Shown here piece by piece: positions 7,670 through 31,696 of a DNA stretch of 64,000 nt. The translations under genes and the position numbers were made by a program. The notes beneath the pieces were generated by a model that searched no databases, had not been told where the DNA came from, and was given only the letters and a program-made list of their open reading frames with translations. The DNA lies in NCBI GenBank assembly GCA_002366835.1, contig DFBZ01000060.1:83011-147010 (forward strand). Reading direction: 5' to 3'. The DNA comes from Gammaproteobacteria bacterium UBA3067. GTDB lineage: Bacteria; Pseudomonadota; Gammaproteobacteria; Pseudomonadales; UBA3067. Position 1 is the first letter of the stretch. The number at the start of each line of letters is the position of its first letter.

Positions 7670-10114
7670 CTAAACCTCCTGCTTGTTTTTTGGAAGTATC
7701 CAGCAAGCTAAAGCCGGTAATACAATAATAGCCCCCACCATATTAATCAAAAACATAAAGGTTAATAGCACCCCCATATCTGCCTGAAACTTTAATGCTG
7801 AAAATAACCAGGTAAAAACTCCTGCCGCCAGTGTAAGACCGGTAAAAATAACCGGCTTGCCTGTAAGTCGCATCGCCTGGTAATAGGCCTCCTCAAGAGG
7901 CAAGCCCTGCTTTAGAAGCCCGTTTAAACGGCTATAAATGTAGATACCGTAGTCCACGCCTATCCCTACTCCGAGCGCAGCAACGGGCAAGGTAGACACC
8001 TTCAGACCAATATCCATTACCGCCATCAGTGCGTAACATAAAATGGAAACCAGACCCAAGGGAAGAATAATACATAGGGTTCCACGTACACTTCTAAATG
8101 TAATAAGACACAATAGGAAGATGGCAACGTAGACATAAAGCATAATGGGTAATTGTGCTTCTTCAACCGCTTCATTGGTTGCCGCAATAACGCCTACATT
8201 CCCGCTAGCCAAATTCAGTTTGAACTTTTCTTCACTTAAACCTGAGTCGAATTCTTTTATGGCCGCCATAATAGATTCCACCGTTTCGGCCTGATGATTC
8301 CGAGTAAAAATTAATACTGGCATCGCATCACAAACGGCATTTAATAAGCCAGTTTTGGTGGTAATAGGTGAAATTGATTGCGAAATCACATAACGGTTAC
8401 GTGATAGCACCTGCCATTTTGGACTGCCCTCATTGTATGCAGCATTAATTTGTTTTGCCGCAACCGGAAGGGATATCACCGATTGCACACCTGGCAAGTT
8501 GCGTGCGTACCAGCTAAAGCGATCGATTGCATCCATCACTTCATAATTAATACAACCATCTTGTTCAGTGCTGACGATGATAGATAATACATCCACGCCA
8601 ATTTCAAAATTATCGGTAATTGCACGCGTATCGAGGTTATAGCGTGAGTCTTCGTGCAACTCTGGAACGCCTTGCTGTAAGTCACCAATTTTTAAGTCCT
8701 GACTTTTCCAATACCCGGCACCCAATAATAAAGCTGTCACTATAAGAGTTGCTATAGACCAACGTGGCCGAGTAAATTTTGCCAACCAATGCCATAGCTT
8801 ATCTCGCTTATCCTCGGCTATACGCCGAGACTGCCTATAGGAATCAATATTTTTAATTTGGGTATAAGACAGTAAAACAGGCAGTAAAATAAGATTTGTG
8901 AGAATAATAACCGCCACCCCTATACTAGCAGTAATGGCCATTTCACGAATAATACCAATATCAATCAGCATGACGGTTAAAAAACCGATGGTGTCACTCG
9001 CCAGCGCCAAGGTTCCCGGAATAATAAGGCGGGCAAAAGTGCGCTTCGCTGCATCCATACTTCCTATACCGGACGTGGCATCATTAATAGCCACGAAAGC
9101 GTGCCCTTCATCTGTATCACCGCCATATAGCACTTCCCCCATCCAGCCGCTAATCATCTGTACGCCATGACTAACACCGATAGCAAATACCAGAAACGGC
9201 ACCAATATACTCATGGGGTCGATGCCATAACCCAAAAACGTGAGTAATCCAATTTGCCAAACCACAGCAATGGTAGAACAAAACAGAGGGAGAACGGTTA
9301 GGCGCAATGAGCCAGAGTACCCAAAAAGAAGCAACCCGGTAATTACAAACGCCAAGCCAAAATATAGTACGACACTTTTTACACCATCCGAAATATCGCC
9401 CACAACCTTGGCAAAACCAATGATATGAACATCAAGCTGTTGTGTTTGATACTTCTCACGAATATCCTTTTCAAGGGCAGCGGCTACCGCTTGGTAATCA
9501 ATTTTTTCTCCGGTTTCAGGGTCTCGGTCCAATAGCTCAGCCGTTATTAGCGTGCCACTGAAATCTTGAACAACTAAACGTCCAAGCTGCCCCGATTTAA
9601 TAATGTTTTGCCTTACTTGTTCGAGCATCTCATTGCTCGTATTAAAGCGCGAAGGGATAACCGGCCCACCATTAAAACCATCTTCTACAACTTCGGTGAA
9701 ACGTACATTTGGTGTAAACAGTGATGTAACGCGTGCTTTATTAATACCGTTTAAAAAGAAAACCCCGTCGGTTACATCCTTTAAGGTGTCAAAGTATTCC
9801 GGCGTAAAGATATCACCCTCTTTTTGAATAAGCGCAATAATAATCCGATTGCCTCCTCCAAACTCATCCCTGTAGTCCAGCAGGGTTTGAATATAGGGGT
9901 GCTTAAGCGGCAACATTTTTTCGTACCCAGCATCCACCTTTAAATGGGTTGCCTGGTAGGCCAGAAAAAGGCTGGTTAATACAAACATCACCAACAGAAG
10001 AGGACGAAAAGAGAACACCAGTTTTACAATCATTTCTTTTAATTTTTTTTCTAGCATCGCATTAACACCATTTACTAAGGAGGTGAATAGATAAGAAACT
10101 ATGTCGAATATCAA
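7670..10114 (-). CDS. RND/MMPL-superfamily inner-membrane transporter
   Basis: 814 aa with two blocks of ~6 hydrophobic helices, each preceded by a large soluble loop (SSD/MMPL-like topology). TTG start abuts the upstream gene's stop. The ATG at 10057 is an alternative start. Confidence 0.8.
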   Translation of the reverse strand: MIFDIVSYLFTSLVNGVNAMLEKKLKEMIVKLVFSFRPLLLVMFVLTSLFLAYQATHLKVDAGYEKMLPLKHPYIQTLLDYRDEFGGGNRIIIALIQKEGDIFTPEYFDTLKDVTDGVFFLNGINKARVTSLFTPNVRFTEVVEDGFNGGPVIPSRFNTSNEMLEQVRQNIIKSGQLGRLVVQDFSGTLITAELLDRDPETGEKIDYQAVAAALEKDIREKYQTQQLDVHIIGFAKVVGDISDGVKSVVLYFGLAFVITGLLLFGYSGSLRLTVLPLFCSTIAVVWQIGLLTFLGYGIDPMSILVPFLVFAIGVSHGVQMISGWMGEVLYGGDTDEGHAFVAINDATSGIGSMDAAKRTFARLIIPGTLALASDTIGFLTVMLIDIGIIREMAITASIGVAVIILTNLILLPVLLSYTQIKNIDSYRQSRRIAEDKRDKLWHWLAKFTRPRWSIATLIVTALLLGAGYWKSQDLKIGDLQQGVPELHEDSRYNLDTRAITDNFEIGVDVLSIIVSTEQDGCINYEVMDAIDRFSWYARNLPGVQSVISLPVAAKQINAAYNEGSPKWQVLSRNRYVISQSISPITTKTGLLNAVCDAMPVLIFTRNHQAETVESIMAAIKEFDSGLSEEKFKLNLASGNVGVIAATNEAVEEAQLPIMLYVYVAIFLLCLITFRSVRGTLCIILPLGLVSILCYALMAVMDIGLKVSTLPVAALGVGIGVDYGIYIYSRLNGLLKQGLPLEEAYYQAMRLTGKPVIFTGLTLAAGVFTWLFSALKFQADMGVLLTFMFLINMVGAIIVLPALACWILPKNKQEV

Positions 10115-11083
10115 TCACTTTAGAGAAAACCGATTGACCCCTCGCGTACCCACGATTAACAGTTCATTTTTTTCAGTTACAACGCTAGCAACCAGATCAT
10201 GAAAGCCAGGGAATTCCAATTTTTTATAATTCTTATTCTGCGCGGTCTTTTGCAATACCACGCCTCCTTGGCCCAGTAAAACAGAACCTCCATCTGCTAA
10301 CTGCACATGCCCCATTAGTCCATTGATGACCGATACAGGTTCTTTTTCCCAGTTCGTACCAAAATCCGATGAGCGATACACCTGCCCTCTAAGCCCGAAA
10401 GTGATCAGTTCGCTATCTGTCGTTTGGGACAAACCGAACATTGATCCACCATAAGGTAAGTGAAGTGTTTCCCAAGTTTCCCCGTGATTATTAGAACGAA
10501 GGAAAGTACCACTTTCTCCTACTAGAAATAACCACTCATCCATTACGAGCGCGGCATTGATATGGCGATCAAATTCATCCGGTAAGGTGCGCTCTTGCCA
10601 ACTAAGACCATGATCTTTTGTTTCCAACATTAGGCCATAAGCACCCACGGCAAAACCACAACAAGCATCATAGAAAACGATGTCTAACAGCGGGCTTTCT
10701 TTTTCTGGTGCAGCATAAACAATTTCCCAGCTTTCCCCCGCATCGCTACTTTTTAGTATCACCGCATCATGCCCCACCAACCACGCTGTATTTGCATCGC
10801 TAAAATAAATTGCGGTAAGGGTCGCTTGTGAAGGAACTGGCATTTGCTGCCAGTTTTCACCATCCTCAGAGCGGATCACGATACCCCACTCTCCTGCAGC
10901 AAAATAATTATCACCACTTTTGGTGATATCCAGCAACAATGCTTTATCCGCTAAAGGGGCAGTAATAGCAGGGCGTTGTGACGGAAATTCACTCACATTT
11001 TCGCCATAAGACCCCAAAGGGCTTACTGCAAAAAAACCAGCAAGCAAATAAGAAAGTGAGTTTTTAAATTTAAGGAAATCCAC
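10115..11083 (-). CDS. BNR/Ycf48-like beta-propeller protein (secreted)
   Basis: Signal peptide. Five SxDxGxxW (BNR/Asp-box) motifs: SEDGENWQ, SSDAGESWE, TKDHGLSWQ, SNNHGETWE and SSDFGTNWE. Confidence 0.75.
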   Translation of the reverse strand: MDFLKFKNSLSYLLAGFFAVSPLGSYGENVSEFPSQRPAITAPLADKALLLDITKSGDNYFAAGEWGIVIRSEDGENWQQMPVPSQATLTAIYFSDANTAWLVGHDAVILKSSDAGESWEIVYAAPEKESPLLDIVFYDACCGFAVGAYGLMLETKDHGLSWQERTLPDEFDRHINAALVMDEWLFLVGESGTFLRSNNHGETWETLHLPYGGSMFGLSQTTDSELITFGLRGQVYRSSDFGTNWEKEPVSVINGLMGHVQLADGGSVLLGQGGVVLQKTAQNKNYKKLEFPGFHDLVASVVTEKNELLIVGTRGVNRFSLK

Positions 11084-11122
11084 TGCACATCTCCAAACTT
11101 GGGTGTCGGAAAAAGAGGGCTA

Positions 11123-11205
11123 CTATAAGCCACTGCGACAGAGAATCACAACGGCTTATAGGAAGAATAGATATTCACGAAACCACACTATTTGGCTTCG
11201 TGAAT
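11123..11205 (-). terminator. Two intra-operon stem-loops between the DUF1329 and BNR genes (attenuator or mRNA-stability element)
   Basis: Plus-strand sequence. Hairpin 1 at 11123-11161 is CTATAAGCC...GGCTTATAG (9 bp). Hairpin 2 at 11173-11205 is ATTCACGAAACC...GGCTTCGTGAAT (11/12 bp). On the transcribed strand the second hairpin is followed by AUCUAUUCUUCC. Confidence 0.4.
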
Positions 11206-11220
11206 GGGGTAATGGAATGG

Positions 11221-12594
11221 CTAGCGAATGCCTTTTGATCGCAAACGGTTAGGCGTCCAATAAGAGGCAGGTTTTTTAAAGGTGAAATTTCGTGGCTTAT
11301 AGGCGTTATCCAAGCCTTCCACTGAGTAGCGTCCTGACTGCAAGTCGTAGGTTGCTTGTACTGTAGTAGTCATAATGGGCAAGGTGTACAGGTTGAAAAT
11401 CTGACCATCCTGATAACGCCATAGTTCACCCTGATTATCATAGATATCTACCTGTGCAATAGTCCAGCTATCTTCATCAATATAGAAAACACGCTTGGCA
11501 TAAATATGGCGCTCTTCAGGTTTAACGGTTGCTTCTACTACCCACACTCGATGTAGCTCATAACGGCACAAGTCTTGATTAATATGCCCTGGCTGAATCA
11601 TCGCATCGGTGGCAATCTCGGATTCATCCACTTGGAAGTTATAACCGTTATAGCCAATATACATTTCCCGCTTGCCCAGCAACTTCCAGTTGTAACGATC
11701 CAGCGAGCCACCAAAACCATCGGTTTGATCTCGCGTCATTAAACCATCAGCAGAGGGTGCATCATATGAGTATTCAGGCGCACGCCGAACCCGCCTTTGC
11801 CCTGGGTTATAAATCCACGCTTTCGCAGGCTCTTTTGCTTGGTTAATCGTGGCGAGAATGAGGTTCATACTGCCCGCTATCCTTGCTGGCGCTTCAGTAC
11901 GCTGAATTGCCTGCACACTAATATTACCAAACTCTTTTGGATCAGAATTAAGCTGGCCATATCCATAAGTCAATTCACGATACTGCACATTCAGCACGTA
12001 CTTACCATCAGGTTCAACAATGGCTTGGTTTGCATAGTAAATAGCACCGTCGCCACGATAGCGAATAGTATGATTCCAAATTGCCTCCGCGCCATTTTGA
12101 GGAATGGGAAAAGGAAACCCAGTGCCCACAACATTTTGTAAGCCGTAATTCCCATCGTCGCTTAACTCAACCTGTGTTGCACTTTGCAGTGTTCGGTCAT
12201 ACACATTTTGAGGGTAAGATGCAGATCTCCTTGTCGTATAAATGGGCATTTTGAATGTTTCGGGGAACTTTTTAAACATCGCTTTCGCACCTTCGGAAAG
12301 CTGCTCTTCATATTTTGAATAGTTACTGGCATCGATGGTAAAAAGAACCTTATCGTCAGCAAATTTATTCTTATGCCGCTCCCCCGGTGGCACTGTTTCC
12401 TGAGGAATTCCTCCTTGCCACGAAGGAATAGTTCCTGCCGCGTTACCCGCTTTTTCTGCACCGACTGGCGTTAACTCTTGCCCCAGCTTAGCCGATTCTT
12501 CCTGGCTGACTTTGCCGTATGCGGGCATTGTTGCAGTGAATGAAATTAAGGAGGAACCTAGTATTGTACTTGTAATTATTGTTTTAATTTTCAT
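11221..12594 (-). CDS. DUF1329-family (LolA-like) periplasmic or outer-membrane protein
   Basis: Signal peptide. The C-terminal region YELHRVWVVEATVKPEERHIYAKRVFYIDEDSWTIAQVDIYDNQGELWR is characteristic of DUF1329 as I remember it. Sits next to a DUF1302 gene. Confidence 0.75.
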   Translation of the reverse strand: MKIKTIITSTILGSSLISFTATMPAYGKVSQEESAKLGQELTPVGAEKAGNAAGTIPSWQGGIPQETVPPGERHKNKFADDKVLFTIDASNYSKYEEQLSEGAKAMFKKFPETFKMPIYTTRRSASYPQNVYDRTLQSATQVELSDDGNYGLQNVVGTGFPFPIPQNGAEAIWNHTIRYRGDGAIYYANQAIVEPDGKYVLNVQYRELTYGYGQLNSDPKEFGNISVQAIQRTEAPARIAGSMNLILATINQAKEPAKAWIYNPGQRRVRRAPEYSYDAPSADGLMTRDQTDGFGGSLDRYNWKLLGKREMYIGYNGYNFQVDESEIATDAMIQPGHINQDLCRYELHRVWVVEATVKPEERHIYAKRVFYIDEDSWTIAQVDIYDNQGELWRYQDGQIFNLYTLPIMTTTVQATYDLQSGRYSVEGLDNAYKPRNFTFKKPASYWTPNRLRSKGIR

Positions 12595-12608
12595 AGAAAT
12601 ATATCCTC

Positions 12609-14135
12609 TTAGAATGCGTATTTGGCATCAACGGTAATAATATCGCGGTCTTCATAAACACTGTCGCCAAAATAGTCGACGTAGCTGATGCTTGTTGACC
12701 AGGTGTCTACAAATTTTGCCTCAAGGCCCACTTTTATTTTTTTACTGTTATCACTAAACGGCCCCAATGTACCCTTTAGATTCCAGTCATAAGACACATT
12801 GGGCGCTAACGTGATGCCTTCATAGACATCATAATAATCCACCGTCACTAAGCCCGTCACACTCCAAGCCTCACCATCAATACCAGGATTTACGGCATCA
12901 CCTTCAAGCCAGGCCACACCCGCTTCTGCTACGACGGTGATACGGTCAGAACCGAGTACATTATTGAAAAATCGGGTTGCTGTTGTCTGCGCCTGGTAAT
13001 ACCCCATACGCTCATGGGATACCGCAGGTTGTCCAGTTAGTAACGCACCAAAAATACTCGATGATGGCATTGCTACAACAAAATTGGGACGATAGGAGAC
13101 CTCCCCTTGTAATGCTGCTTCTCCTACTTGGTAGTTATAACTTATGCCGTATAAACGTGTTTTTTCCGGATATTCCCAGAAATATGAGGCTGTACTTAAT
13201 ACCGGCACAGGACCCGCAGCAAAAGCAGTCACCGGGCTACCATTTAAGACCGGCGTTTGATTATGGTAGCGTACAAAATAAAAACCAAATTCGGCATAAT
13301 CAAGCTTTGGTATCACTGTCGAAAGCCGTATTCCGAATTGACCGTCATCACTTCCGGTATTATCGGCACCCTTCGGCACACCCCCTAACATTTCATAACC
13401 GGGAATAAACAAATCACCACCATCGCCTTCACCTAGGAGGTCGCTTGGGCTAAAGAAAGTACCCACTGGCGGCAGCTCTGTTTCATCCCATTCACTTTGG
13501 TAATAAAACTCTAAGCCGGTATAGGGAAGGATGTCAGGAAAAGAAAACCAGGCAATCGGCGCAGGAAGCAATCCTTCCTTAACCTCAGAGCCAGGCATCA
13601 GCAAACGCCCTACATCAAGGGGATTAATGGAGTTTATTCCTCCTTGAATAAAAGTACTTTCACCCCAGCTAACCACCTGATTACCAAGCCGCGCCTCAAG
13701 GGTTTTCTCTCCAATCATAAATGTTGAGAACAAGAAAGCATCCAGCAAGCGTAAATCATGGCCAAGGCGACCTTTTGCTTGTTCGGGAATTTCCGCATCA
13801 CTTTTATCTTCAATAGCTGAGTCATAAAGATAGGTGAAGCGAACAAAGGCACCACGTGTATCGTTGGCAATTTTAATATCGTTACTGCCTTTTATAGGCG
13901 AAGAAACGATGTCATTTTTTTCAAAGTTAGCGTCTCCTTTCGAGCCTGCAGCCAACACAGGATCTGGGTCTGTAGTGCGTACGCTAATACCGGCTGAAAG
14001 GCTGGTATCTATGTTTGCTTTGTAGCTGCCAATATCCATCTCAAATGAATATGCAGAGCCTGATGCAATACTCATCGTTGCCATGAACACCGCCGTCTTA
14101 AGCCTGGAAGTTGTTTTTATCGTTGTTTTATTCAT
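12609..14135 (-). CDS. DUF1302-family outer-membrane beta-barrel protein
   Basis: Signal peptide ending SAYS/FE. Alternating beta-strand pattern. Terminal ...VDAKYAF with a C-terminal aromatic residue, the OMP sorting signature. Confidence 0.75.
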   Translation of the reverse strand: MNKTTIKTTSRLKTAVFMATMSIASGSAYSFEMDIGSYKANIDTSLSAGISVRTTDPDPVLAAGSKGDANFEKNDIVSSPIKGSNDIKIANDTRGAFVRFTYLYDSAIEDKSDAEIPEQAKGRLGHDLRLLDAFLFSTFMIGEKTLEARLGNQVVSWGESTFIQGGINSINPLDVGRLLMPGSEVKEGLLPAPIAWFSFPDILPYTGLEFYYQSEWDETELPPVGTFFSPSDLLGEGDGGDLFIPGYEMLGGVPKGADNTGSDDGQFGIRLSTVIPKLDYAEFGFYFVRYHNQTPVLNGSPVTAFAAGPVPVLSTASYFWEYPEKTRLYGISYNYQVGEAALQGEVSYRPNFVVAMPSSSIFGALLTGQPAVSHERMGYYQAQTTATRFFNNVLGSDRITVVAEAGVAWLEGDAVNPGIDGEAWSVTGLVTVDYYDVYEGITLAPNVSYDWNLKGTLGPFSDNSKKIKVGLEAKFVDTWSTSISYVDYFGDSVYEDRDIITVDAKYAF

Positions 14136-14421
14136 CCAGCATTCCTCTCATTATTAATCTTAAAGCGAGCAGGCAAACAAACACCTGAGAAACTTTTCCT
14201 GATATTCATAAAGTATAATTATTACTTATAATATTGAAAGTTCAAGAAAAAAACTATTTTTCAAAGGAAAACTTCCAGTATGAGTAAAGCTTGTAGTGTA
14301 ATTGGCTAGCTCATAGCCCACGAAGAGTGCTTGGTATTACAAAAACCAGCACTAAAGCCTGGCGCTTCAACCATCAAGGATTTTATTTACGAGTTTTGCA
14401 GGGGCTGCTTAATGGAAAAAG

Positions 14422-17408: not shown

Positions 17409-19331
17409 GTGTCCCACTTACCCGTCATCGTAGGCCTTGGTGGCATTAACGCAGCAGGCAGGTCTTCATTCCACAATAGCTACAAGCTGGTGGTTGCCGA
17501 CAAGCTCAGCAAAGAAGACCGGGAAAACACCTACACGGGCCTCGCATCCATGATGGGCCTAATCCGCTACGAAAATGGCGGTTTCGTTGATAATCAAGGC
17601 AATAGCATTGCGCCGGACATGATTGAAGAGCGCTTTGGCCAACATATTTCTGAAAACACCCGCCTTCGCAAAATTAACGATGAACACTATGACCCAGACA
17701 AAAAACCCTTCCAGCAACGAGCCAGCTTAAGCAATCAGGGCGAAGCCATCACCTTCACCCTTAAAACCCGCAACCTGCCCAGCACCCTACCTGATAACTG
17801 GCAAGTCAGCGCTATTGACAAGGTAAACAGCGAAGTACGCATACAAGATGGCTTGGACGTATTATTCCCCGATGGCCAAGTCTCAAAAGTTTCTACCGGC
17901 GGGCAACTCCCTACGGGCATGAAACTAAACAAGCTGTATCAATCCCGTAATCATCCGCGCGGCTTACAAATGACCGTGTACGGGTGCTCCGATGCACTGC
18001 GCTCGGTGGGAATTGACTGGGAAACTATCCAGCAGCACATTCGCCCGGACCAAGTGTCGGTCTATGCCAGTAGCGCCATGGGGCAAATGGATGAAAATGG
18101 TGGCGGTGGTTATATGTCTGCGGCCATGCGCGGCAAACGCGCCACATCCAAACAACTTCCCCTTAGCTTGGCAGACATGCCTGCTGACTTTATCAATGCT
18201 TATATTCTAGGCAGTACCGGCAATACGGGTGCTAGCCTGGGGGCCTGTGCCTCCTTTCACTACAACCTGGCGAACGGCGTACGGGATATCCAAAGTGGCC
18301 GTGCCCGCGTGGCCATCGTGGGTTCAGCGGAAGCCCCTGTAACGCCTGAAATTATCGAAGGTTATGGCGCTATGGGCGCACTGGCCACCGATGATGAAAT
18401 TGCTGAACTCGACCAATCCACAACAGGCCCAGATCGCGCACGCGCTTGTCGTCCTTTTGGTTATAACTGTGGTTTCACCATGGCCGAATCTGCACAGTTT
18501 TTTGTTTTGATGGATGATGAACTGGCCCTGGAGCTCGGCGCCAAAATCTACGGCGCAGTGCCCGATGTTTTCGTAAATGCCGATGGCTTTAAAAAATCCA
18601 TCTCCTCACCCGGCGTGGGCAACTACCTGACTTTATGGAAAGCCGCCGCTCTGGGAGAAAAACTACTGGGCCGAAAAGCTCTGCAAGAGCGTAGCTTTGT
18701 CCATGCCCACGGCACCGGCACCCCTCAGAACCGAGTAACGGAATCCCATGTTTTTAATGAAGTAGCAAAAGCCTACGACATCAATAACTGGCTGATCAGC
18801 GCCATTAAATGCTACGTTGGCCACTCACTGGCAACAGCCGGAGGCGATCAACTTAACTTCACCCTCGGCACCTGGCAACATGGCCTAGTACCTGGCATCA
18901 CCACCCTTGATGAAGTCGCAGAGGATGTACACCAATCCAACCTGCGTTTTGAACGGGAACACACAGAAGTTGGCCAAGAAGGCATGGATATGGCCTTTCT
19001 AAACTCCAAAGGTTTTGGCGGCAACAACGCCACAGCTCTGGTACTCGCTCCTCATGCAGTAAAGAAAATGCTGGCCAAAAAACACGGCAAAGAAGCCCTG
19101 CAACAATACGAAGAACGCAGCATTTCGGTTGAGGAAAAAGCCAAGCAGTACGAAACAGAGGCAACTCGGGGAACCGCGAAACCCATCTACCACTTTGATA
19201 ACAATGTATTGGTCGGTGATGACCTCGAAATCACCGATGAAAGCATTACCGTTCCCGGCCAGACGAACAAAGTTAGTTTCACGGATACCGGGCATTTCGA
19301 CGATATCTGCCTGAGTGATGGAGAGTTATAA
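17409..19331 (+). CDS. fabY: FabY-type beta-ketoacyl synthase (KAS I/II-domain initiating condensing enzyme)
   Basis: GTG start after AAAAGGAG. (M)SHLPVIVGLGGINAAGRSSFH, HPRGLQMTVYG, GACASF (active-site Cys), FVNADGFKKSISSPGVGNYLT and HAHGTGTP are collinear with P. aeruginosa FabY (PA5174) as I remember it. Confidence 0.8.
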   Translation: MSHLPVIVGLGGINAAGRSSFHNSYKLVVADKLSKEDRENTYTGLASMMGLIRYENGGFVDNQGNSIAPDMIEERFGQHISENTRLRKINDEHYDPDKKPFQQRASLSNQGEAITFTLKTRNLPSTLPDNWQVSAIDKVNSEVRIQDGLDVLFPDGQVSKVSTGGQLPTGMKLNKLYQSRNHPRGLQMTVYGCSDALRSVGIDWETIQQHIRPDQVSVYASSAMGQMDENGGGGYMSAAMRGKRATSKQLPLSLADMPADFINAYILGSTGNTGASLGACASFHYNLANGVRDIQSGRARVAIVGSAEAPVTPEIIEGYGAMGALATDDEIAELDQSTTGPDRARACRPFGYNCGFTMAESAQFFVLMDDELALELGAKIYGAVPDVFVNADGFKKSISSPGVGNYLTLWKAAALGEKLLGRKALQERSFVHAHGTGTPQNRVTESHVFNEVAKAYDINNWLISAIKCYVGHSLATAGGDQLNFTLGTWQHGLVPGITTLDEVAEDVHQSNLRFEREHTEVGQEGMDMAFLNSKGFGGNNATALVLAPHAVKKMLAKKHGKEALQQYEERSISVEEKAKQYETEATRGTAKPIYHFDNNVLVGDDLEITDESITVPGQTNKVSFTDTGHFDDICLSDGEL

Positions 19332-19667: not shown

Positions 19668-20429
19668 GTGAGTTACAAAGCCGCGCTGGCTAAACGCATG
19701 CAAATCGACCTCGACACCATACAGTCCAGCGGAGAACATGGCTTAATTACCGCAGAAGATGTAGAACACGCAGCACAACTTCACGATGAAAAAGGCGCAT
19801 TAATCAAGCTGCGCGGCGTGCGTCGATCCATGGCAAAAAACATGGCTAGAGCGCATGCAGAAGTAGTTCAAGTGACTATTTTCGACGACGTAGATGTGCA
19901 TGAATGGGGCGAGGGGAACGACCCCACCATGCGCCTCGTAAGAGCTATTGCCGTCGCCTGCGAGGCAGAGCCCTTTTTAAACGCATGGTATGATGGTAAA
20001 ACAATGGCGTTAAGGCCGCTAAAAACCATCGACTTGGGCATTGCTGTCGATACGCCTGACGGACTTTTTGTACCGGTTCTCAGGGACATTGGCAACCGCC
20101 CCATAGAAAACCTCCGCAAGGGCCTGGGCAACCTTAGATCTGCCGTTAGATCCCGCGCCATTCCACCATCAGAGTTAATTAATCCAGGTATCACCCTTTC
20201 TAATTTCGGAACCATCGTGGGCAAATACGCTAATCCCGTCGTTGTTCCTCCGACCGTTTGTATTATTGGCTCTGGAGCAATACGCGAAGCGGTCACAGCC
20301 GTAAATGGTTCTGCACAGGTACGCCGCATTATACCCATATCCTTAAGCTTCGATCATCGTCCCATTACCGGAGGTGAAGCTGCGCGCTTTTTTAGTGCAT
20401 TCCAGGACGACCTAAAATTACCTGAATGA
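19668..20429 (+). CDS. 2-oxoacid dehydrogenase E2-type acyltransferase: E3-binding and catalytic domains only, no lipoyl domain
   Basis: GTG start. PSBD-like AALAKRMQIDLDTIQSSGEHGLITAEDVEHAA. Catalytic core with ITLSNFGTIVG and SLSFDHRPITGGEAARF (DHRxxxG motif intact). Confidence 0.7.
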   Translation: MSYKAALAKRMQIDLDTIQSSGEHGLITAEDVEHAAQLHDEKGALIKLRGVRRSMAKNMARAHAEVVQVTIFDDVDVHEWGEGNDPTMRLVRAIAVACEAEPFLNAWYDGKTMALRPLKTIDLGIAVDTPDGLFVPVLRDIGNRPIENLRKGLGNLRSAVRSRAIPPSELINPGITLSNFGTIVGKYANPVVVPPTVCIIGSGAIREAVTAVNGSAQVRRIIPISLSFDHRPITGGEAARFFSAFQDDLKLPE

Positions 20430-26764: not shown

Positions 26765-29700
26765 TCAGGGCAGCTTGAAAAAAGGATCCAGATAATAGGC
26801 CCCCAAGCCGGAAGTCACATCTTTCTCCCACCAGATGTTAAACATATAGACCTCTTCTTCCCTATCCTCATCTGAATCAAAGTCTCCGCTGTCTGCCGTA
26901 ATACTCTCCAAAGAGTACATCTTAGGACTTGTTCCACCCAGATCAACACTGATGTAATCTGTCGTTAAGTCAATTGTCCACGCACCTGCTTCCTCAACAG
27001 AGCCGTTTGACAACCACTCATAGGTGTTAGGCGAGCCTTGAGCAAAGAGCATACGTTCCGTTTGACCCCATACGATTGCAAATTCCCCCACAATGTCTGC
27101 CTCTGCTGTGATATCAACACCATTCGCCGATTCTGCTATGAACGCATCGAAGGGAACGAGACGTAAAGTTAAATAAGAGAGATCCATCGCACCGTTTTGA
27201 ATCACCACCACCTCCGGATGATAAGTATCATTAAACTCAGCCAAGGCAATTTGGTGCTTATCACCGCTACTGGCAATAGTAATTTGCAGGTTTCCATCCC
27301 CATCCACCAACCATGTCATCGCTTCATCTATCGAACCATCATCAGCCCCGTTAGAAAGCAACTCTTGCTCACGCACCCATCGACCACCATCACCGCTGCC
27401 ATCAAACACGTAGTTATCAATAACGAAATGGATATCCGTAACAAACTCTCGTCCAATTCCAAAACCCGCCACACCAAAGCTGCTACCACTGGTTATTGTG
27501 CTATTGGCAGCAAAATCAACGCCGTTACCACTGGCTGCAAGAAATTCGGCAGGCAAAGGTGCTGGTGCCGTGTAGCTAAAGGCTGTTTTAAACTGATCCA
27601 GCGCAACAGTATTGAACATCAGATCCTGCTCAACCGATCCCGCTGCAAAGACGGCTCCGCTGCGAACAATATTTCCGTATCCACCGAGCTCAGTAATGGT
27701 ATCCACAAAGAAGAAATGCTTAAGATCGCCATCCTCAATATCAACATTACTTAGGTCAACCACTGCCTGCGGCGTAACGAACTCAACGACCTCTACGCCA
27801 CCTTTGTGTATCACTTCGTAGCTAACGGTAATACCTGTGTCGACATAGGAGTTTTTGTAGAAGCGCACCGTGGGGTTGGCCCCAGCCACCGTACCATCGC
27901 TTGAAACAAGGTAAGCATTAACGTCATATTCATTACTACCATCATTGCCACGACCGACCCATATACCCACTCCATTACCGTTAGCTGGGTCGAAACTGGC
28001 AGAGCTGCTTATAATGTCACTCAATGTGGTTGCCGGCACAGGCTCCCAGTTACCACTGCCAACAGGCTTTTCTAACTGGTCTACGGGCACAATACCTTCG
28101 CAGGAAAGTCCCGTTTCATCAAACCAGTCATCCCAACGACTCCAGTTATTGTCACACCAAAAAATATAGGCCTCAGCAGTATTACTTTCGCTTGCTAGGT
28201 AAGCTCGCGCACCTGTGGCAAAGGAGGGGTTTCCAGGAAGGCCATCTGCAAAATTACCGTCGAGAATATCCAGCATGATCCTGTCTTCAATGTTGTATTC
28301 CTCAAGGTCTACATGCCTTATTAGGTGATCAACAATTACTCCAGATTTTGTTAATTTCAGAACAGCCGTTTCAGGTGCTGCGGCATAACCATCAATTTGT
28401 AATATGTCGTCGGCAATATCTACATCTCCACTGCTGCTCAGATAACCTTCTTCGCCCACCGCATTCGCTGTTGAGTCGACCCATACCGTATCGATCTCAT
28501 CCCAGGAGAACTGGGTTTCCAGAGCATCGGAAATAACTCCGTATTTAAAACCCCAGTCTCTATCAGCTTCCAGCCAAACAATGCCACTGGCACCAATGGG
28601 CTGCTCTCTGACGTCTACTGGCAGGGTCGCACTGACGTTAAATATTGCCGTACACGCTGAGCCGCCAGTATTCGTATTGCCGGTCCAAGTTCCGGTAAAT
28701 TTGCCAGCGCCCTCGCTGAATGTTCCGGTAAAGCTGTCTGAAACATTAGCCGTAGCATCCACGCCCGAAAAGGTAAAAGTGCCATCAGGCTGTATGGTTC
28801 CTGTGTATAGCCAGTCATCATTCATGTTACTAACGGTCAGAGCAGTACCAACCTGTTCAAACTGCCAGAACTCGGAACCGCTTTCACCAACAACACTCAG
28901 GCAACTACTACTGTCGACATCCCACTCGGTGCCCGAATCAGCACTGTAGTCTTGCAGGTAAATACCGCTCATGTCAGGGATTGCTGCTTCACAGGCATCG
29001 CCTATGCCATCGCCGTCATCAACACCGTTGGTATCTAGCTGATCTGAGTTAGAAACTAAAGGACAGTTATCAGTAGCATCACCGACGGTATCGCTGTCGG
29101 TATCTTCATTAAACGGGTCGGTGCCTAGACCTAGCTCATCAACATCCAACACGCTATCGTTGTCGTCATCGGCATCACAGGCATCGCCTTCGGTATCACC
29201 GTCGTTGTTAACCTGGTTAGTATTGGCAATCTCTGGGCAGTTATCCAGATCATCAATCACTGTGTCTAAGTCAGTGTCCAATTCACATGCATCGCCTATG
29301 CTATTTGAGTTCAAATCAGCTTGATCTGCATTAGCTGTAAATTGACAGTTATCAGGGGCAGCATCCAGCACGCCATCATTGTCATCATCGGTATCACAGG
29401 CATCACCTTCGGCGTCGCCGTCGTTGTTAGCCTGATCGGTGTTTGCATCAACCGAGCAGTTATCACCATTGTCGCCCACGGTATCGCTGTCGGTATCAAC
29501 TGTTTCAGCTGGATCTGCTGGGAAGGCATCAGCATTATCACCCACGCCATCGCTGTCAGTATCCGTAGTTTCAGCCGGGTCTGCTGGGAAGGCATCGGCG
29601 TTATCACCTACACCATCACTGTCGGTATCAGTTGTTTCAGTCGGATTTACCGGGAAAGCATCGGCGTTATCACCTACACCATCGCTGTCGGTATCTGCAG

Positions 29701-31696
29701 TTTCAGCTGGATCTGCTGGGAAGGCATCAGCATTATCACCCACGCCATCGCTGTCGGTATCCGCAGTTTCAGTCGGATCTACCGGGAAGGCATCGGCATT
29801 ATCACCCATACCATCGCTGTCGGTGTCCGCAGTTTCAGCTGGATCGGCTGGGAAAGCATCAGCATTATCACCCACGCCATCGCTGTCGGTATCCGCAGTT
29901 TCAGTTGGATCTGCTGGGAAGGCATCAGCATTATCACCCACGCCATCGCTGTCAGTATCCGTAGTTTCAGCCGGGTCTGTTGGGAAGGCATCTGAATTGT
30001 TGCCCACGGTGTCGCTATCTGTATCTAGGGCCTCTAAAGGGTCGGTGGGGAATTGATCTACACCATCAGAAAAACCATCCGAGTCTGTATCCCACAGTAA
30101 AGGATCAGTTCCATCCAAACCTTCCTGGGTATCAGAAACACCGTCTCCATCTTTGTCGGTGTCACTGTTATCGCCTATATTATCACCATCCAAATCGCTG
30201 TCTTCGGCACTATCCAAGGGAAACAAATCATCTACATCGAGCACACTGTCCTCATCATCATCGCCATCACAGACATCACCACCGTCGCCTAAACCATCGG
30301 TGTTCAGCTGGTCAGGGTTAGCGTTCAATGGACAGTTATCTGTACCGTCATTGATAACGCCATCGCCGTCGGCATCGTTTGAGCAGGCATCGCCTTCGCC
30401 ATTCGCATCCGTATCTATTTGATCCGTATTGGCAGCCAATGGACAGTTATCAACTCCGTTATTTATAGTATCGGAATCACGATCCAGGGCTGGATCTAAA
30501 AAGGCACTGTTATCAAGGGGGTAGTCATCATCATTATCCGCCCAACCGTCATTATCGTCATCAGTGTCGGCATTGTTACCAATAAAGTCTCCATCCGTAT
30601 CAAGCTGTTCGGCTGGATCTTCTGGAAACGCGTCATCAGCATTTAGCACTGAGTCGCCGTCAAGATCAGAGTTTGTTTCTGCTGGCTCTGACTCCACATT
30701 AATCGTGTCAAGCGCGGTAGTGTCTGTTGTTTCTCCAGTAACGGTAGTTTCGTCTCGCAACTCTTGCTCAATATCAGCAACCAGAATAGTCGTGTTAGGA
30801 ATGGTCAAAGTTGCTGGATCCTGGCTTAACACGTCTAGTGCAGGTGCTTCGTAGACCGTACTCGCAACTCCACCGACGGTTCCATCAATTTCACCATCGG
30901 CCAAATCATTGGCCAGCTCAGTTAAAATTTCACCTGTATCACCAGTAACAGATAACTTTTGCATCTCATAAGCTATAGCCGTTAATGCTTCTATAGCAGT
31001 TCGGTATGCGGCCACGGAAGCCTGCTCTTCTGTTGTGTCAGTCGTACTGTCAATCAAAGGAGGCGTATCAAAAATATCAACCGTTTCATCCAAACCAAAA
31101 CCCATGGTGGATTTGACCTGAGAAGCAGCGGTAAGCAAGGCGGCTTCAAAAGAAGCGCCATCAAGCGAAGCTGGGTCTGCAATGGCAATATCCACCGCCA
31201 TGGTTGTCAGCGGTGTTGCATAAATCTGTTCACCGGAATCCAGCAATGCCTGGGTTACCACCGTTCGCATAGTAGTGATAACAGGCGCCAGACCTGTAGT
31301 AATGTCGGTTGTATCAGTATCGGAGGTAACTTCTAGAATATAAGGAGGGGCCAAAGGAAAAGCTAAAGATAGATTCTGTATCTGCGCCTGTGCATTGGTA
31401 GAGCCGCTTCCTGCAACACTGCCTTTCATTCCAGGCCCTGATGGTTCAATGTTGTAGACAGTCACCACGGCGTTGGCCAGCGGCCCTTTAATGCCACCCC
31501 CTGTTAGTGCGAGTGTCGCGGTATCGGCGTTGGTATTACCGCCAGTATTATTCGTACCGTTTTCTTCTGCAGCAGGATCATTGCGGTGCGAATCGCTACA
31601 CCCTGCGAAAAAAGAAAGCAGCACTAGATAAGTAATTACGTGAACCAGACTGCGGGTTGGTACACATTGAGCTAGGCGCATTATAAATCCCCTCAC
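26765..31696 (-). CDS. Giant (1643 aa) surface lipoprotein with thrombospondin type-3 (TSP3) Ca-binding repeats and an uncharacterised ~780-aa C-terminal region
   Basis: Lipobox LSFFAGC followed by S. Dozens of DxDxDGxxDxxD motifs, both the cysteine-containing form (DNCPLxxNxDQxDxDxDGxGDAC) and a Cys-free form (DTDSDGVGDNADAFPADP). Confidence 0.8.
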   Translation of the reverse strand: MRGFIMRLAQCVPTRSLVHVITYLVLLSFFAGCSDSHRNDPAAEENGTNNTGGNTNADTATLALTGGGIKGPLANAVVTVYNIEPSGPGMKGSVAGSGSTNAQAQIQNLSLAFPLAPPYILEVTSDTDTTDITTGLAPVITTMRTVVTQALLDSGEQIYATPLTTMAVDIAIADPASLDGASFEAALLTAASQVKSTMGFGLDETVDIFDTPPLIDSTTDTTEEQASVAAYRTAIEALTAIAYEMQKLSVTGDTGEILTELANDLADGEIDGTVGGVASTVYEAPALDVLSQDPATLTIPNTTILVADIEQELRDETTVTGETTDTTALDTINVESEPAETNSDLDGDSVLNADDAFPEDPAEQLDTDGDFIGNNADTDDDNDGWADNDDDYPLDNSAFLDPALDRDSDTINNGVDNCPLAANTDQIDTDANGEGDACSNDADGDGVINDGTDNCPLNANPDQLNTDGLGDGGDVCDGDDDEDSVLDVDDLFPLDSAEDSDLDGDNIGDNSDTDKDGDGVSDTQEGLDGTDPLLWDTDSDGFSDGVDQFPTDPLEALDTDSDTVGNNSDAFPTDPAETTDTDSDGVGDNADAFPADPTETADTDSDGVGDNADAFPADPAETADTDSDGMGDNADAFPVDPTETADTDSDGVGDNADAFPADPAETADTDSDGVGDNADAFPVNPTETTDTDSDGVGDNADAFPADPAETTDTDSDGVGDNADAFPADPAETVDTDSDTVGDNGDNCSVDANTDQANNDGDAEGDACDTDDDNDGVLDAAPDNCQFTANADQADLNSNSIGDACELDTDLDTVIDDLDNCPEIANTNQVNNDGDTEGDACDADDDNDSVLDVDELGLGTDPFNEDTDSDTVGDATDNCPLVSNSDQLDTNGVDDGDGIGDACEAAIPDMSGIYLQDYSADSGTEWDVDSSSCLSVVGESGSEFWQFEQVGTALTVSNMNDDWLYTGTIQPDGTFTFSGVDATANVSDSFTGTFSEGAGKFTGTWTGNTNTGGSACTAIFNVSATLPVDVREQPIGASGIVWLEADRDWGFKYGVISDALETQFSWDEIDTVWVDSTANAVGEEGYLSSSGDVDIADDILQIDGYAAAPETAVLKLTKSGVIVDHLIRHVDLEEYNIEDRIMLDILDGNFADGLPGNPSFATGARAYLASESNTAEAYIFWCDNNWSRWDDWFDETGLSCEGIVPVDQLEKPVGSGNWEPVPATTLSDIISSSASFDPANGNGVGIWVGRGNDGSNEYDVNAYLVSSDGTVAGANPTVRFYKNSYVDTGITVSYEVIHKGGVEVVEFVTPQAVVDLSNVDIEDGDLKHFFFVDTITELGGYGNIVRSGAVFAAGSVEQDLMFNTVALDQFKTAFSYTAPAPLPAEFLAASGNGVDFAANSTITSGSSFGVAGFGIGREFVTDIHFVIDNYVFDGSGDGGRWVREQELLSNGADDGSIDEAMTWLVDGDGNLQITIASSGDKHQIALAEFNDTYHPEVVVIQNGAMDLSYLTLRLVPFDAFIAESANGVDITAEADIVGEFAIVWGQTERMLFAQGSPNTYEWLSNGSVEEAGAWTIDLTTDYISVDLGGTSPKMYSLESITADSGDFDSDEDREEEVYMFNIWWEKDVTSGLGAYYLDPFFKLP
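29475..30046 (-). repeat. In-frame 66-bp tandem repeat, about 8.5 units (22-aa unit DTDSDGVGDNADAFPADPAETA)
   Basis: Units begin at 29475, 29541, 29607, 29673, 29739, 29805, 29871 and 29937, an exact 66-bp phase. Most are roughly 85-95% identical at the nucleotide level by eye. Confidence 0.9.

Follow-up and report, generated by a model that had tools for sequence, protein, structure and literature searches.

A DUF1302/DUF1329/Ycf48-like/RND gene quartet of a gammaproteobacterium matches the PhnJKLM/AmeABCD systems and is organized as two gene pairs

DUF1302 and DUF1329 proteins were detected in 2011 in purified outer-membrane-vesicle nanopods (PMC3110197), and in 2012 the phnJKLM genes of Delftia sp. 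Cs1-4, which include them, were described as phenanthrene-induced and widespread in Alpha-, Beta-, and Gammaproteobacteria (PMC3318190). In 2016, the four genes were found to be cofit in Shewanella, Kangiella, and Pseudomonas, for which the export of a cell-wall component was proposed (bioRxiv 10.1101/072470). The counterpart of Castellaniella defragrans, AmeABCD, was named a “tetrapartite RND transporter” in 2018 (PMC6394551), where RND denotes the resistance-nodulation-division superfamily of inner-membrane pumps. In 2020, genes of Pseudomonas putida were shown to be needed on Tween 20 and butyl stearate and an esterase role was suggested (bioRxiv 10.1101/2020.07.04.188060). AlphaFold co-folding in 2024 gave a strong contact between the pump and the propeller as well as alternative complexes of DUF1329, either with the barrel or with the pump–propeller pair (PMC10866462). 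Most recently, in 2026, the quartet was listed among the most highly expressed proteins of the anaerobic benzene degrader ORM2a (PMC13101534). Here, we describe a four-gene locus of this kind in a 64,000-nucleotide stretch from Gammaproteobacteria bacterium UBA3067 (contig DFBZ01000060.1), which is referred to in its full length as the window. It comprises four co-oriented minus-strand open reading frames (ORFs) at 7670–14135, and is very probably a four-component system of the PhnJKLM/AmeABCD type.

The ORF list agrees with an earlier reading of this DNA from its sequence only, which had noticed four co-oriented envelope genes at this place. The components are as follows.

12609–14135, minus strand: DUF1302 outer-membrane beta-barrel, 508 aa, with a signal peptide, equivalent to AmeA/PhnJ/PP_0765 (Pfam).
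11221–12594, minus strand: DUF1329 periplasmic protein, 457 aa, with a signal peptide, equivalent to AmeB/PhnK/PP_0766 (Pfam).
11084–11220, minus strand: structured spacer of 137 nt separating two gene pairs (RNA fold).
10115–11083, minus strand: Ycf48-like BNR beta-propeller, 322 aa, with a GTG start, equivalent to AmeC/PhnL/PP_2018 (Pfam).
7670–10057, minus strand: HAE3/MMPL-type RND inner-membrane transporter, 795 aa, equivalent to AmeD/PhnM/PP_2019 (Pfam and NCBIfam).

When compared by description, AmeABCD and PhnJKLM consist of the same four families (DUF1302, DUF1329, Ycf48-like COG4447, and HAE3 RND) in the same order and orientation, with the same predicted locations and with neither a membrane-fusion protein (MFP) nor an outer-membrane factor (OMF). 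The lack of these usual RND partners, which the sequence-only reading had pointed out, was borne out here, as a scan of 20 window genes (the quartet and 16 neighbors, 862 to 33495) revealed neither a HlyD-family MFP gene nor one of the TolC type. The two described clusters differ from ours in their surroundings, since they lie inside monoterpene or phenanthrene catabolic islands and are substrate-induced, whereas the window holds housekeeping genes (lysine catabolism, Fe-superoxide dismutase, and NlpC/P60). The window barrel is also approximately 100 aa shorter than AmeA (508 vs. 605 aa). The same quartet in a chromosomal housekeeping-type context is known from Shewanella amazonensis (Sama_1588–1591), the Kangiella cluster, and P. 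putida (PP_0765/0766 and PP_2018/2019). The locus is a member of an already recognized system and does not change what is known about that system; it adds a compact example outside a catabolic island with a short barrel, and is no more tractable than the Pseudomonas, Shewanella, and Castellaniella models. The two-pair architecture with its structured spacer, the asymmetric Ser-His/Asp-Tyr relay of the pump, and the multi-DUF1329 variants described below are family-level observations that refine the picture. Two other candidates for kinship were rejected: the AupA/AupB alkane-uptake proteins of Marinobacter are not DUF1302/DUF1329 members, as AupA is FadL-like, and PahS/PahP are a TonB-dependent receptor and a classic binding protein.

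Pfam and NCBIfam searches placed all four proteins in the families that had been named from the sequence. The barrel matched Pfam PF06980 (DUF1302) with an E-value of 1.5e-118 over profile positions 2–541 of 541, and its C-terminus (...DAKYAF), as read from the sequence, is typical of outer-membrane proteins. No TolC/OEP-family match was obtained for it in Pfam, a sequence search of the PDB gave no meaningful relative, and NCBIfam provided no model for either the barrel or the DUF1329 protein. Sec-type signal peptides that contain no lipobox cysteine were read directly for the barrel, the DUF1329 protein, and the propeller. A DUF1302 homologue of P. aeruginosa was described as a barrel of 18 strands similar to the channels AlgE and Occ, to which it shows porin-like matches at a TM-score of about 0.55, with no long periplasmic tunnel; the AlphaFold complex of barrel and DUF1329 in that 2026 study gave an ipTM of 0.84 (PMC13499233).

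The DUF1329 protein matched Pfam PF07044 with an E-value of 5.8e-133, and residues 347–425 additionally matched Pfam LolA_like (E-value 1.8e-11). Its AlphaFold2 model (pLDDT 89.4, pTM 0.89) was compared with known structures by Foldseek, which gave LolA3 of Porphyromonas gingivalis (9TP6, target TM-score 0.83), 4Z48, 3BK5, and 3BUU as matches, and farther ones in LolA and RseB/MucB. Superposition on the LolA superfamily covered approximately 270–295 alignment columns, an extent that agrees with the beta-sheet region in the C-terminal part of the model. One of the matches, 4Z48, is a half-length protein labeled “DUF1329 family”; a PDB search with the DUF1329 sequence gave nothing meaningful despite this label, so that the link was made by the fold search only. 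According to the model, the C-terminal half of the protein is a LolA fold. The N-terminal region of approximately 150 residues, with a highly conserved mature N-terminus, has no counterpart in the LolA-type structure matches. The function of LolA3 itself is unknown (PMC13103446). The best named relatives of the DUF1329 protein were found in Kangiellaceae/Aliikangiella at approximately 50% identity.

This fold invites comparison with the Lol (LolCDE–LolA–LolB) and Mla (MlaFEDB–MlaC–MlaA/OmpC) pathways, whose logic is shared, namely an energized extractor in the inner membrane, a soluble periplasmic carrier whose cavity is hydrophobic, and an acceptor in the outer membrane. DUF1329 resembles LolA of the Lol pathway at the level of fold only, being twice its size and carrying the extra N-terminal domain. 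The quartet further departs from both pathways in having an RND proton antiporter instead of an ABC ATPase and an integral barrel as the acceptor. Neither Pfam nor NCBIfam detected an ABC gene in the cluster, whose membrane partner is thus the RND pump and not LolCDE. The assignments also bear on the proposal of Thompson et al. (2020) that DUF1302 and DUF1329 constitute an outer-membrane fatty-ester esterase, with the pump and the propeller serving a separate function. It accounts for the requirement of the P. putida genes on Tween 20 and butyl stearate and not on free fatty acids, and for the absence of a fitness defect in any other esterase gene (bioRxiv 10.1101/2020.07.04.188060). However, no hydrolase domain was detected in the two proteins, which are a full-length member of a barrel family and a LolA-fold protein. 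The genes are moreover part of a strictly ordered unit in all 40 pump-selected loci examined below, the quartet is also cofit on non-ester substrates (bioRxiv 10.1101/072470), and a later paper from the same group treats the proteins as a transport system instead (PMC10866462). An esterase is hence, in our estimation, the most improbable of the explanations considered here.

A variant cluster was observed in the metagenome-assembled genome (MAG) GCA_002408105.1, the DUF1329 of which is 73% identical to the window protein. It contains one barrel, four tandem DUF1329 paralogues (59–70% identical to the window protein), and a single pump of the same subfamily on the opposite strand (L085:5376–17805 and L086). 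No propeller gene was present within 17.8 kb in this variant, showing that the propeller is not always encoded alongside the pump. The combination of one barrel and one pump with four DUF1329 paralogues fits a role of DUF1329 as the cargo-specific subunit.

The propeller matched Pfam PSII_BNR (Ycf48-like) with an E-value of 9.8e-24, together with BNR/Sortilin families, and its family profile matched the Ycf48 structure 2XBG with an E-value of 5.5e-32. Its score against the Ycf48 equivalog model NF010237 of NCBIfam was 81.9 bits, which is below the cut-off of 326 bits. The protein accordingly belongs to the same sequence family as the photosystem II assembly factor Ycf48/HCF136, from which it differs in this sub-equivalog score and in its coupling to an RND pump; the 20 scanned genes of the window include no photosystem gene. 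The sequence-only reading had counted five Asp-boxes, of which four are canonical (S/T-x-D/N-x-G-x-x-W) and the fifth, “SEDGENW”, is one residue short. An alignment with 24 homologues contained 46 invariant columns. The GTG start codon at 11083 is preceded by a GGAG ribosome-binding site. An exhaustive representative search with the propeller gave 3,313 sequences at E ≤ 1e-30, a number swamped by giant multi-propeller BNR proteins and unusable as a family size.

The pump ORF is open from a TTG at 10114, which corresponds to 814 aa, while an ATG at 10057 gives 795 aa and a gap of 57 nt to the propeller gene. The latter is most likely the start, because independent gene calls on the identical public contig used it and the 795-aa form aligns end to end with its homologues. 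The sequence-only reading was right about the gaps of 14 nt (barrel to DUF1329) and 137 nt (DUF1329 to propeller), but its 0-nt gap and 814-aa pump are replaced by these values. The pump matched Pfam MMPL with an E-value of 8.2e-25, while ACR_tran reached 26.7 bits, just below its cut-off of 28 bits. The nearest NCBIfam model was TIGR00921 (HAE3 subfamily) with an E-value of 4.7e-43, which is below the trusted cut-off. RND_permease models gave 15–20 bits against a cut-off of 1,250 bits, and the curated lipid-RND models were likewise not reached (TIGR00833, 102.7 vs. 874.7 bits; HpnN, 60.3 vs. 751.85 bits; BstA, 31.1 vs. 1,400 bits). Homologues of the pump were 56–71% identical, which is unusually conserved, with named matches that include Deferrisomatales, Desulfuromusa, and Inquilinaceae; the best named relatives were Pseudomonadales MAGs at 61–62% identity.

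The AlphaFold2 model of the pump (pLDDT 84.5) contains 12 transmembrane (TM) helices and two periplasmic domains of approximately 175 aa each. Foldseek against the PDB ranked MmpL5/MmpL4 first (TM-score 0.74–0.79), followed by MmpL3, NPC1/NPC1L1/Patched, and HpnN (0.64). By sequence, the PDB matches were marginal (E-values of 6e-9 to 1e-3) and confined to the C-terminal TM bundle, and no solved structure belongs to the subfamily of this pump. Within the RND superfamily, the MmpL, NPC1, Patched, and HpnN proteins make up the branch that handles lipids and amphiphiles. D702–Y703 of TM10 and S296–H297 of TM4 were invariant across 79 sequences; the former aligned with the Asp-Tyr of both MmpL4 halves in HMMER, and the latter fell over D702–Y703 in an internal-repeat alignment of the pump. 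According to these alignments, this pump family has kept one canonical proton-relay pair and has Ser-His in place of the other. The MmpL3-type signature, in which Asp-Tyr is present in both TM4 and TM10, was found in TM10 only. Similar to MmpL4/MmpL5–MmpS4/5, MmpL3, and HpnN, the window pump thus has 12 TM helices, two small periplasmic domains, the TM10 Asp-Tyr, and the corresponding fold, and those systems also use accessory periplasmic partners instead of an AcrA/TolC pair. The pump differs from them in the TM4 Ser-His and in its marginal sequence similarity, and none of those systems contains the partners found here (propeller, LolA-fold protein, and outer-membrane barrel).

The authors of the AmeABCD study proposed a static, continuous efflux duct similar to AcrAB–TolC, in which the propeller and DUF1329 replace the MFP and DUF1302 replaces TolC. 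HAE1 pumps of the AcrAB–TolC type do resemble the quartet in combining an RND inner-membrane component with an outer-membrane barrel, and an efflux phenotype was reported for AmeABCD. With its single barrel, its single RND, and two periplasmic proteins, the quartet is similar in composition to four-part HAE1 pumps such as CusCFBA and TriABC–OpmH (PMC6394551), and all four proteins clustered upon co-folding, although the authors of the latter work concluded that two alternative complexes are formed (PMC10866462). The window pump, at 795 aa, is approximately 250 aa shorter than an HAE1 pump (~1,040 aa), is of the MmpL/NPC1 type with ACR_tran below the cut-off, and presumably lacks a TolC-docking domain, given its size and modeled fold. 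Further, there is no TolC-family channel in the quartet, the DUF1302 barrel is porin-like and has no long periplasmic tunnel (PMC13499233), and DUF1329 has a carrier fold with no coiled-coil hairpin in place of an MFP. A rough estimate from the domain sizes suggests that the stacked periplasmic parts would be shorter than the usual periplasmic width, and the modules are frequently unlinked in genomes. A continuous duct therefore seems improbable to us.

Conservation of the quartet as a unit, which the sequence-only reading had put forward and on which it had made its interpretation depend, was examined from two sides. A genome scan seeded with the propeller alignment, hence selecting loci through the propeller, yielded 80 loci; its pattern required GW[AV]VGHD, where the window propeller has AWLVGHD, so that the genome of the window was itself missed. 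An RND gene lay immediately downstream of the propeller at all 80, and strict gene calling recovered all four genes in the same order at 29 of them. In the converse scan, metagenome contigs were searched with the pump as the query, and the counts cover the loci with sufficient upstream sequence: the propeller adjoined the pump at 60/60 loci, and the ordered full quartet was present at 40/40. These adjacency and order counts uphold the claim that the quartet is conserved as a unit; the quartet is a genuine feature, well above what chance would give. Hundreds of loci were found in each collection scanned, and the system occurs in several phyla. Among the titles in the genome scan were Pseudomonas and allies, Azospirillaceae, Inquilinaceae, Binatia, Thermoanaerobaculia, Ectothiorhodospiraceae, and Sinimarinibacterium; in terms of larger groups, the titled records include Acidobacteriota, Desulfobacterota, Binatia, and Alpha- and Gammaproteobacteria. 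At a Desulfococcaceae locus truncated by the end of its contig, three of the four genes were present. Within the window itself, no paralogues of the quartet proteins were found elsewhere.

Clustering of the flanking ORFs, in which regulators, esterases, and catabolic enzymes were sought, gave no extra gene that is kept with the quartet across taxa. A LuxR-type regulator, as reported beside Pseudomonas DUF1302/DUF1329 pairs, was also not found among the window genes scanned. Instead, a lineage-specific synteny with housekeeping genes was observed, which consists of pepN, DUF2797, and rhomboid in Pseudomonas, and of pepN, NAD-glutamate dehydrogenase (gdhB), pyrD, and zapC in a metagenomic lineage. 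The pepN gene lay upstream of the quartet or of the pump–propeller pair in 29 Pseudomonas-type genome loci, and upstream in 14 metagenome loci, with NAD-glutamate dehydrogenase, pyrD, and zapC downstream. This association looks like conserved core-genome synteny and not a functional link. In one related quartet (L083), the identity to the window proteins was 67% for DUF1329, 52% for the barrel, 40% for the propeller, and 65–66% for the pump, the last on the assumption that the contig of P0134 (25,159 bp) is the L083 contig. The soluble propeller is hence the fastest-evolving subunit in this comparison. Directly after the pump of this locus, on the same strand, lies an AMP-binding (acyl-CoA-synthetase-like) gene (L083:15329–17152). 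This neighbor, which is a single case, could hint at a fatty-acid-type cargo.

Intergenic distances at the junctions were then compared as lower bounds, with a gap of at least 50 nt regarded as loose. The junction from barrel to DUF1329 was loose in 0/29 genome quartets and 1/40 metagenome quartets, and that from propeller to pump in 1/29 genome quartets, whereas that from DUF1329 to propeller was loose in 18/29 and 20/40, respectively. In the P. putida, P. fluorescens, and P. stutzeri groups, the cluster is split into two loci at this same DUF1329/propeller junction, as found in our genome scan and reported previously (bioRxiv 10.1101/072470), while in the window the pairs are joined by the structured 137-nt spacer. 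Two extra genes are inserted at the junction in the benzene degrader ORM2a (PMC13101534). The spacer of the window folds into two long, perfect hairpins, the first of 13 bp at 11205–11173 and the second of 17 bp at 11161–11123, the latter followed by a U-run UAGCCCUCUUUUU. Its RNA folding energy was −46.7 kcal/mol, compared with −26.0 ± 3.1 for shuffled sequences (z = −6.67). The first hairpin was flagged as terminator-like in a consensus scan of a kind that yields no more sites than shuffled sequence. The spacer was assigned to no Rfam family, Rfam having found nothing in the window, and no other copy of it was present in the window. It may be a partial terminator or stabilizer that sets the ratio of an outer-membrane module to an inner-membrane module; it could also act as an attenuator or a processing site. 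Since the DUF1329-to-propeller junction is the sole loose one, carries the hairpins in the window, and is the point of the split in Pseudomonas, the quartet consists of two tight pairs, barrel–DUF1329 and propeller–pump.

Such a division raises the question of whether the pairs are mere neighbors with two unrelated envelope functions. They are unlinked in many Pseudomonas genomes, their loose junction may include a terminator in the window, and the two groups of genes gave opposite phenotypes on tyrosine in P. stutzeri (bioRxiv 10.1101/072470). On the other hand, the order and orientation were the same in 40/40 pump-selected loci, and the titled quartet loci span several phyla. The genes are also cofit even when unlinked (bioRxiv 10.1101/072470; 10.1101/2020.07.04.188060), and contacts between the modules were predicted (PMC10866462). 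Chance neighborhood of two independent pairs is thus very improbable.

The families, folds, conserved residues, gene-unit conservation, and two-pair architecture observed above, joined with protein contacts, cofitness, and phenotypes taken from the literature on homologues, make it quite likely that the quartet transports a hydrophobic cargo across the envelope, whatever the direction. We tentatively arrange the components as a transporter of two modules, and the balance tips slightly toward this scheme with its outward direction included. The inner-membrane module would consist of the lipid-type RND (MmpL/HpnN/NPC1-like), driven by the proton motive force, and of the soluble periplasmic propeller, presumably seven-bladed, sitting on the periplasmic domains of the pump. 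The outer-membrane module would consist of the DUF1302 barrel and the periplasmic DUF1329, whose LolA-type half-barrel could shield the hydrophobic cargo from water. The inner-membrane module would pass the cargo to DUF1329, which would deliver it to or through the barrel; in this step, DUF1329 could be a shuttle, or an adaptor bound to the barrel and touching the pump–propeller complex. DUF1329 may hence be the cargo-binding element that links both modules, and the net direction would most likely be outward, as efflux or export of envelope lipids. Energy coupling, the carrier role, and the direction are what we infer here: the pump is taken as lipid-type because its best structure matches are MmpL5/4, MmpL3, NPC1, Patched, and HpnN, and the carrier role is assigned because of the LolA fold of DUF1329 and the four-paralogue variant.

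An outward direction is favored because all characterized bacterial RNDs export; to our knowledge, every one of them moves its cargo outward. The strictly conserved proton-relay residue suggests an energy-requiring extraction step, which also favors it. Phenotypes of homologues point the same way. Deletion of ameABCD resulted in poor growth on monoterpene hydrocarbons, slightly more accumulated Nile red, and a lower limonene tolerance even with acetate present (PMC6394551), of which the Nile-red and tolerance data point outward. The sequence-only reading, which had linked the quartet to hydrophobic substrates “only indirectly”, was right in spirit and understated the record; the co-folding of the four proteins that it suggested as a check is already in print (PMC10866462), as is a second one of barrel and DUF1329 (PMC13499233). 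In addition, most quartets lie in core-genome contexts and the phenotypes of homologues are pleiotropic, as reported for Shewanella and P. stutzeri (bioRxiv 10.1101/072470). The housekeeping context (pepN, gdhB, pyrD, and zapC), which is the rule here and at most loci, fits a general role in the envelope.

Several points weigh against this scheme. Neither the cargo nor the direction of the quartet system is known in the literature, nor, as the sequence-only reading had stated, is there an experimental structure of the assembled system (PMC13499233). The sole direct transport assay, which used Nile red and de-energized cells, gave a small effect (PMC6394551). Mutant defects are mostly a lack of growth on Tween 20, butyl stearate, and monoterpene hydrocarbons. 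Uptake would account for these defects equally well, as it would for the induction or high expression seen on phenanthrene and in a benzene degrader. Proton coupling is assumed, because TM4 does not have the Asp of the canonical relay. The contacts are AlphaFold predictions on Pseudomonas homologues, some of which were described as weak. Lastly, one close relative has no adjacent propeller, so the propeller may be non-obligatory.

Our main rival explanation is the same machinery run inward for the uptake of nutrients of low solubility, for example fatty esters, terpenes, aromatic hydrocarbons, or sterol-like lipids. The DUF1302 barrel would admit the compound, DUF1329 would carry it across the periplasm, and the RND–propeller pair would insert it into the inner membrane, which resembles the handover of cholesterol from NPC2 to NPC1 or the retrograde reading of Mla. 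The inward sterol mechanism of NPC1/NPC2 is established, and the occurrence of NPC1, NPC1L1, and Patched among the matches of the pump model gives inward sterol handling a precedent within the superfamily. NPC2–NPC1 likewise combines an RND-superfamily protein with a soluble lipid carrier of small size, which works on the extracytoplasmic side; it differs in that the soluble partners are non-homologous, NPC1 places its cargo in the membrane, and a second membrane to be crossed is absent. Uptake would further explain why the growth failure of mutants is specific to hydrophobic carbon sources, with normal growth on acetate or the matching free acids (bioRxiv 10.1101/2020.07.04.188060; PMC6394551), and why clusters occur inside catabolic islands, are phenanthrene-induced, and are highly expressed in a benzene degrader (PMC3318190; PMC13101534). 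Tandem DUF1329 paralogues resemble the several substrate-binding proteins of one importer, and the acyl-CoA-synthetase-like gene after the pump of the related locus would also suit this explanation. It is opposed by the general experience with bacterial RNDs noted above. Insertion of a hydrophobe into a membrane is energetically downhill, with no obvious need for a conserved proton-relay Asp-Tyr, and in the deletion mutant, Nile-red accumulation is increased and limonene sensitivity is higher even when acetate is present (PMC6394551). Most quartets, including that of the window, are located among housekeeping genes with no catabolic partner, and the pleiotropic phenotypes of Shewanella and P. 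stutzeri also speak against it (bioRxiv 10.1101/072470). We therefore consider inward transport possible but rather unlikely, and prefer the outward two-module scheme.

The crossing of the periplasm by water-insoluble molecules is understood for lipoproteins, lipopolysaccharide, and partly for phospholipids, but not for hydrocarbons, esters, terpenes, and many envelope lipids. In the few organisms studied in this respect, the quartet system is needed to grow on hydrophobic compounds or to tolerate them, and its solution would be relevant to bioremediation, to solvent-tolerant or ester-/terpene-consuming strains, and possibly to an envelope target in Pseudomonas. It could conceivably represent a fourth kind of trans-envelope machine for lipids or hydrophobes in diderm bacteria, beside Lol, Lpt, and the Mla/AsmA type, in which a propeller-capped, proton-driven RND exchanges cargo with a barrel via an oversized LolA-fold protein, and which in its most novel form would run inward with interchangeable or multiplied DUF1329 proteins setting the cargo specificity. 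This proposal is speculative and we hold it to be doubtful. If it were true in the inward form, it would be the first bacterial RND-dependent route of nutrient uptake and a prokaryotic counterpart of NPC2/NPC1.

The start of the quartet and its surroundings in the window were also inspected. The ATG of the DUF1302 gene at 14135 is preceded by a GAGAGGA ribosome-binding site, as read from the sequence, and one promoter-like feature lies in the 286-nt region upstream.

14218–14245, minus strand: promoter-like site, TTGAAC, 16 nt, AATAAT (consensus scan).

This match constitutes weak evidence only, as such promoter-like consensus sites were no commoner in the window than in shuffled sequence. Just past the stop codon of the upstream aldehyde dehydrogenase gene, at 14330–14421 on the minus strand, a short GC-rich hairpin is followed by TTTTT (ccagg-cttta-gtgctgg-ttttt). 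This hairpin and T-run suggest that the quartet is transcribed separately from the lysine-catabolism genes. The flanks are of the housekeeping kind and include genes for an L-piperidine-6-carboxylate dehydrogenase, a saccharopine-dehydrogenase-like protein, Fe-superoxide dismutase, NlpC/P60, a class II tRNA synthetase, and isocitrate lyase. Farther away, the plus-strand ORF at 17409–19331 encodes a beta-ketoacyl-synthase-like protein of 640 aa, which scored 123 bits against a FabF cut-off of 494 and carries an N-terminal extension of approximately 180 aa. It is followed at 19668–20429 on the plus strand by a 253-aa ORF in which, of the domains of a 2-oxoacid dehydrogenase E2 acyltransferase, just the E3-binding domain and the catalytic domain are present. 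The two may form an unusual pair in lipid or secondary metabolism. At 26765–31696 on the minus strand, a protein of 1,643 aa gave thrombospondin type 3 (calcium-binding) repeats as its sole Pfam match (E-value 6.8e-40), and is probably a large secreted or surface protein.

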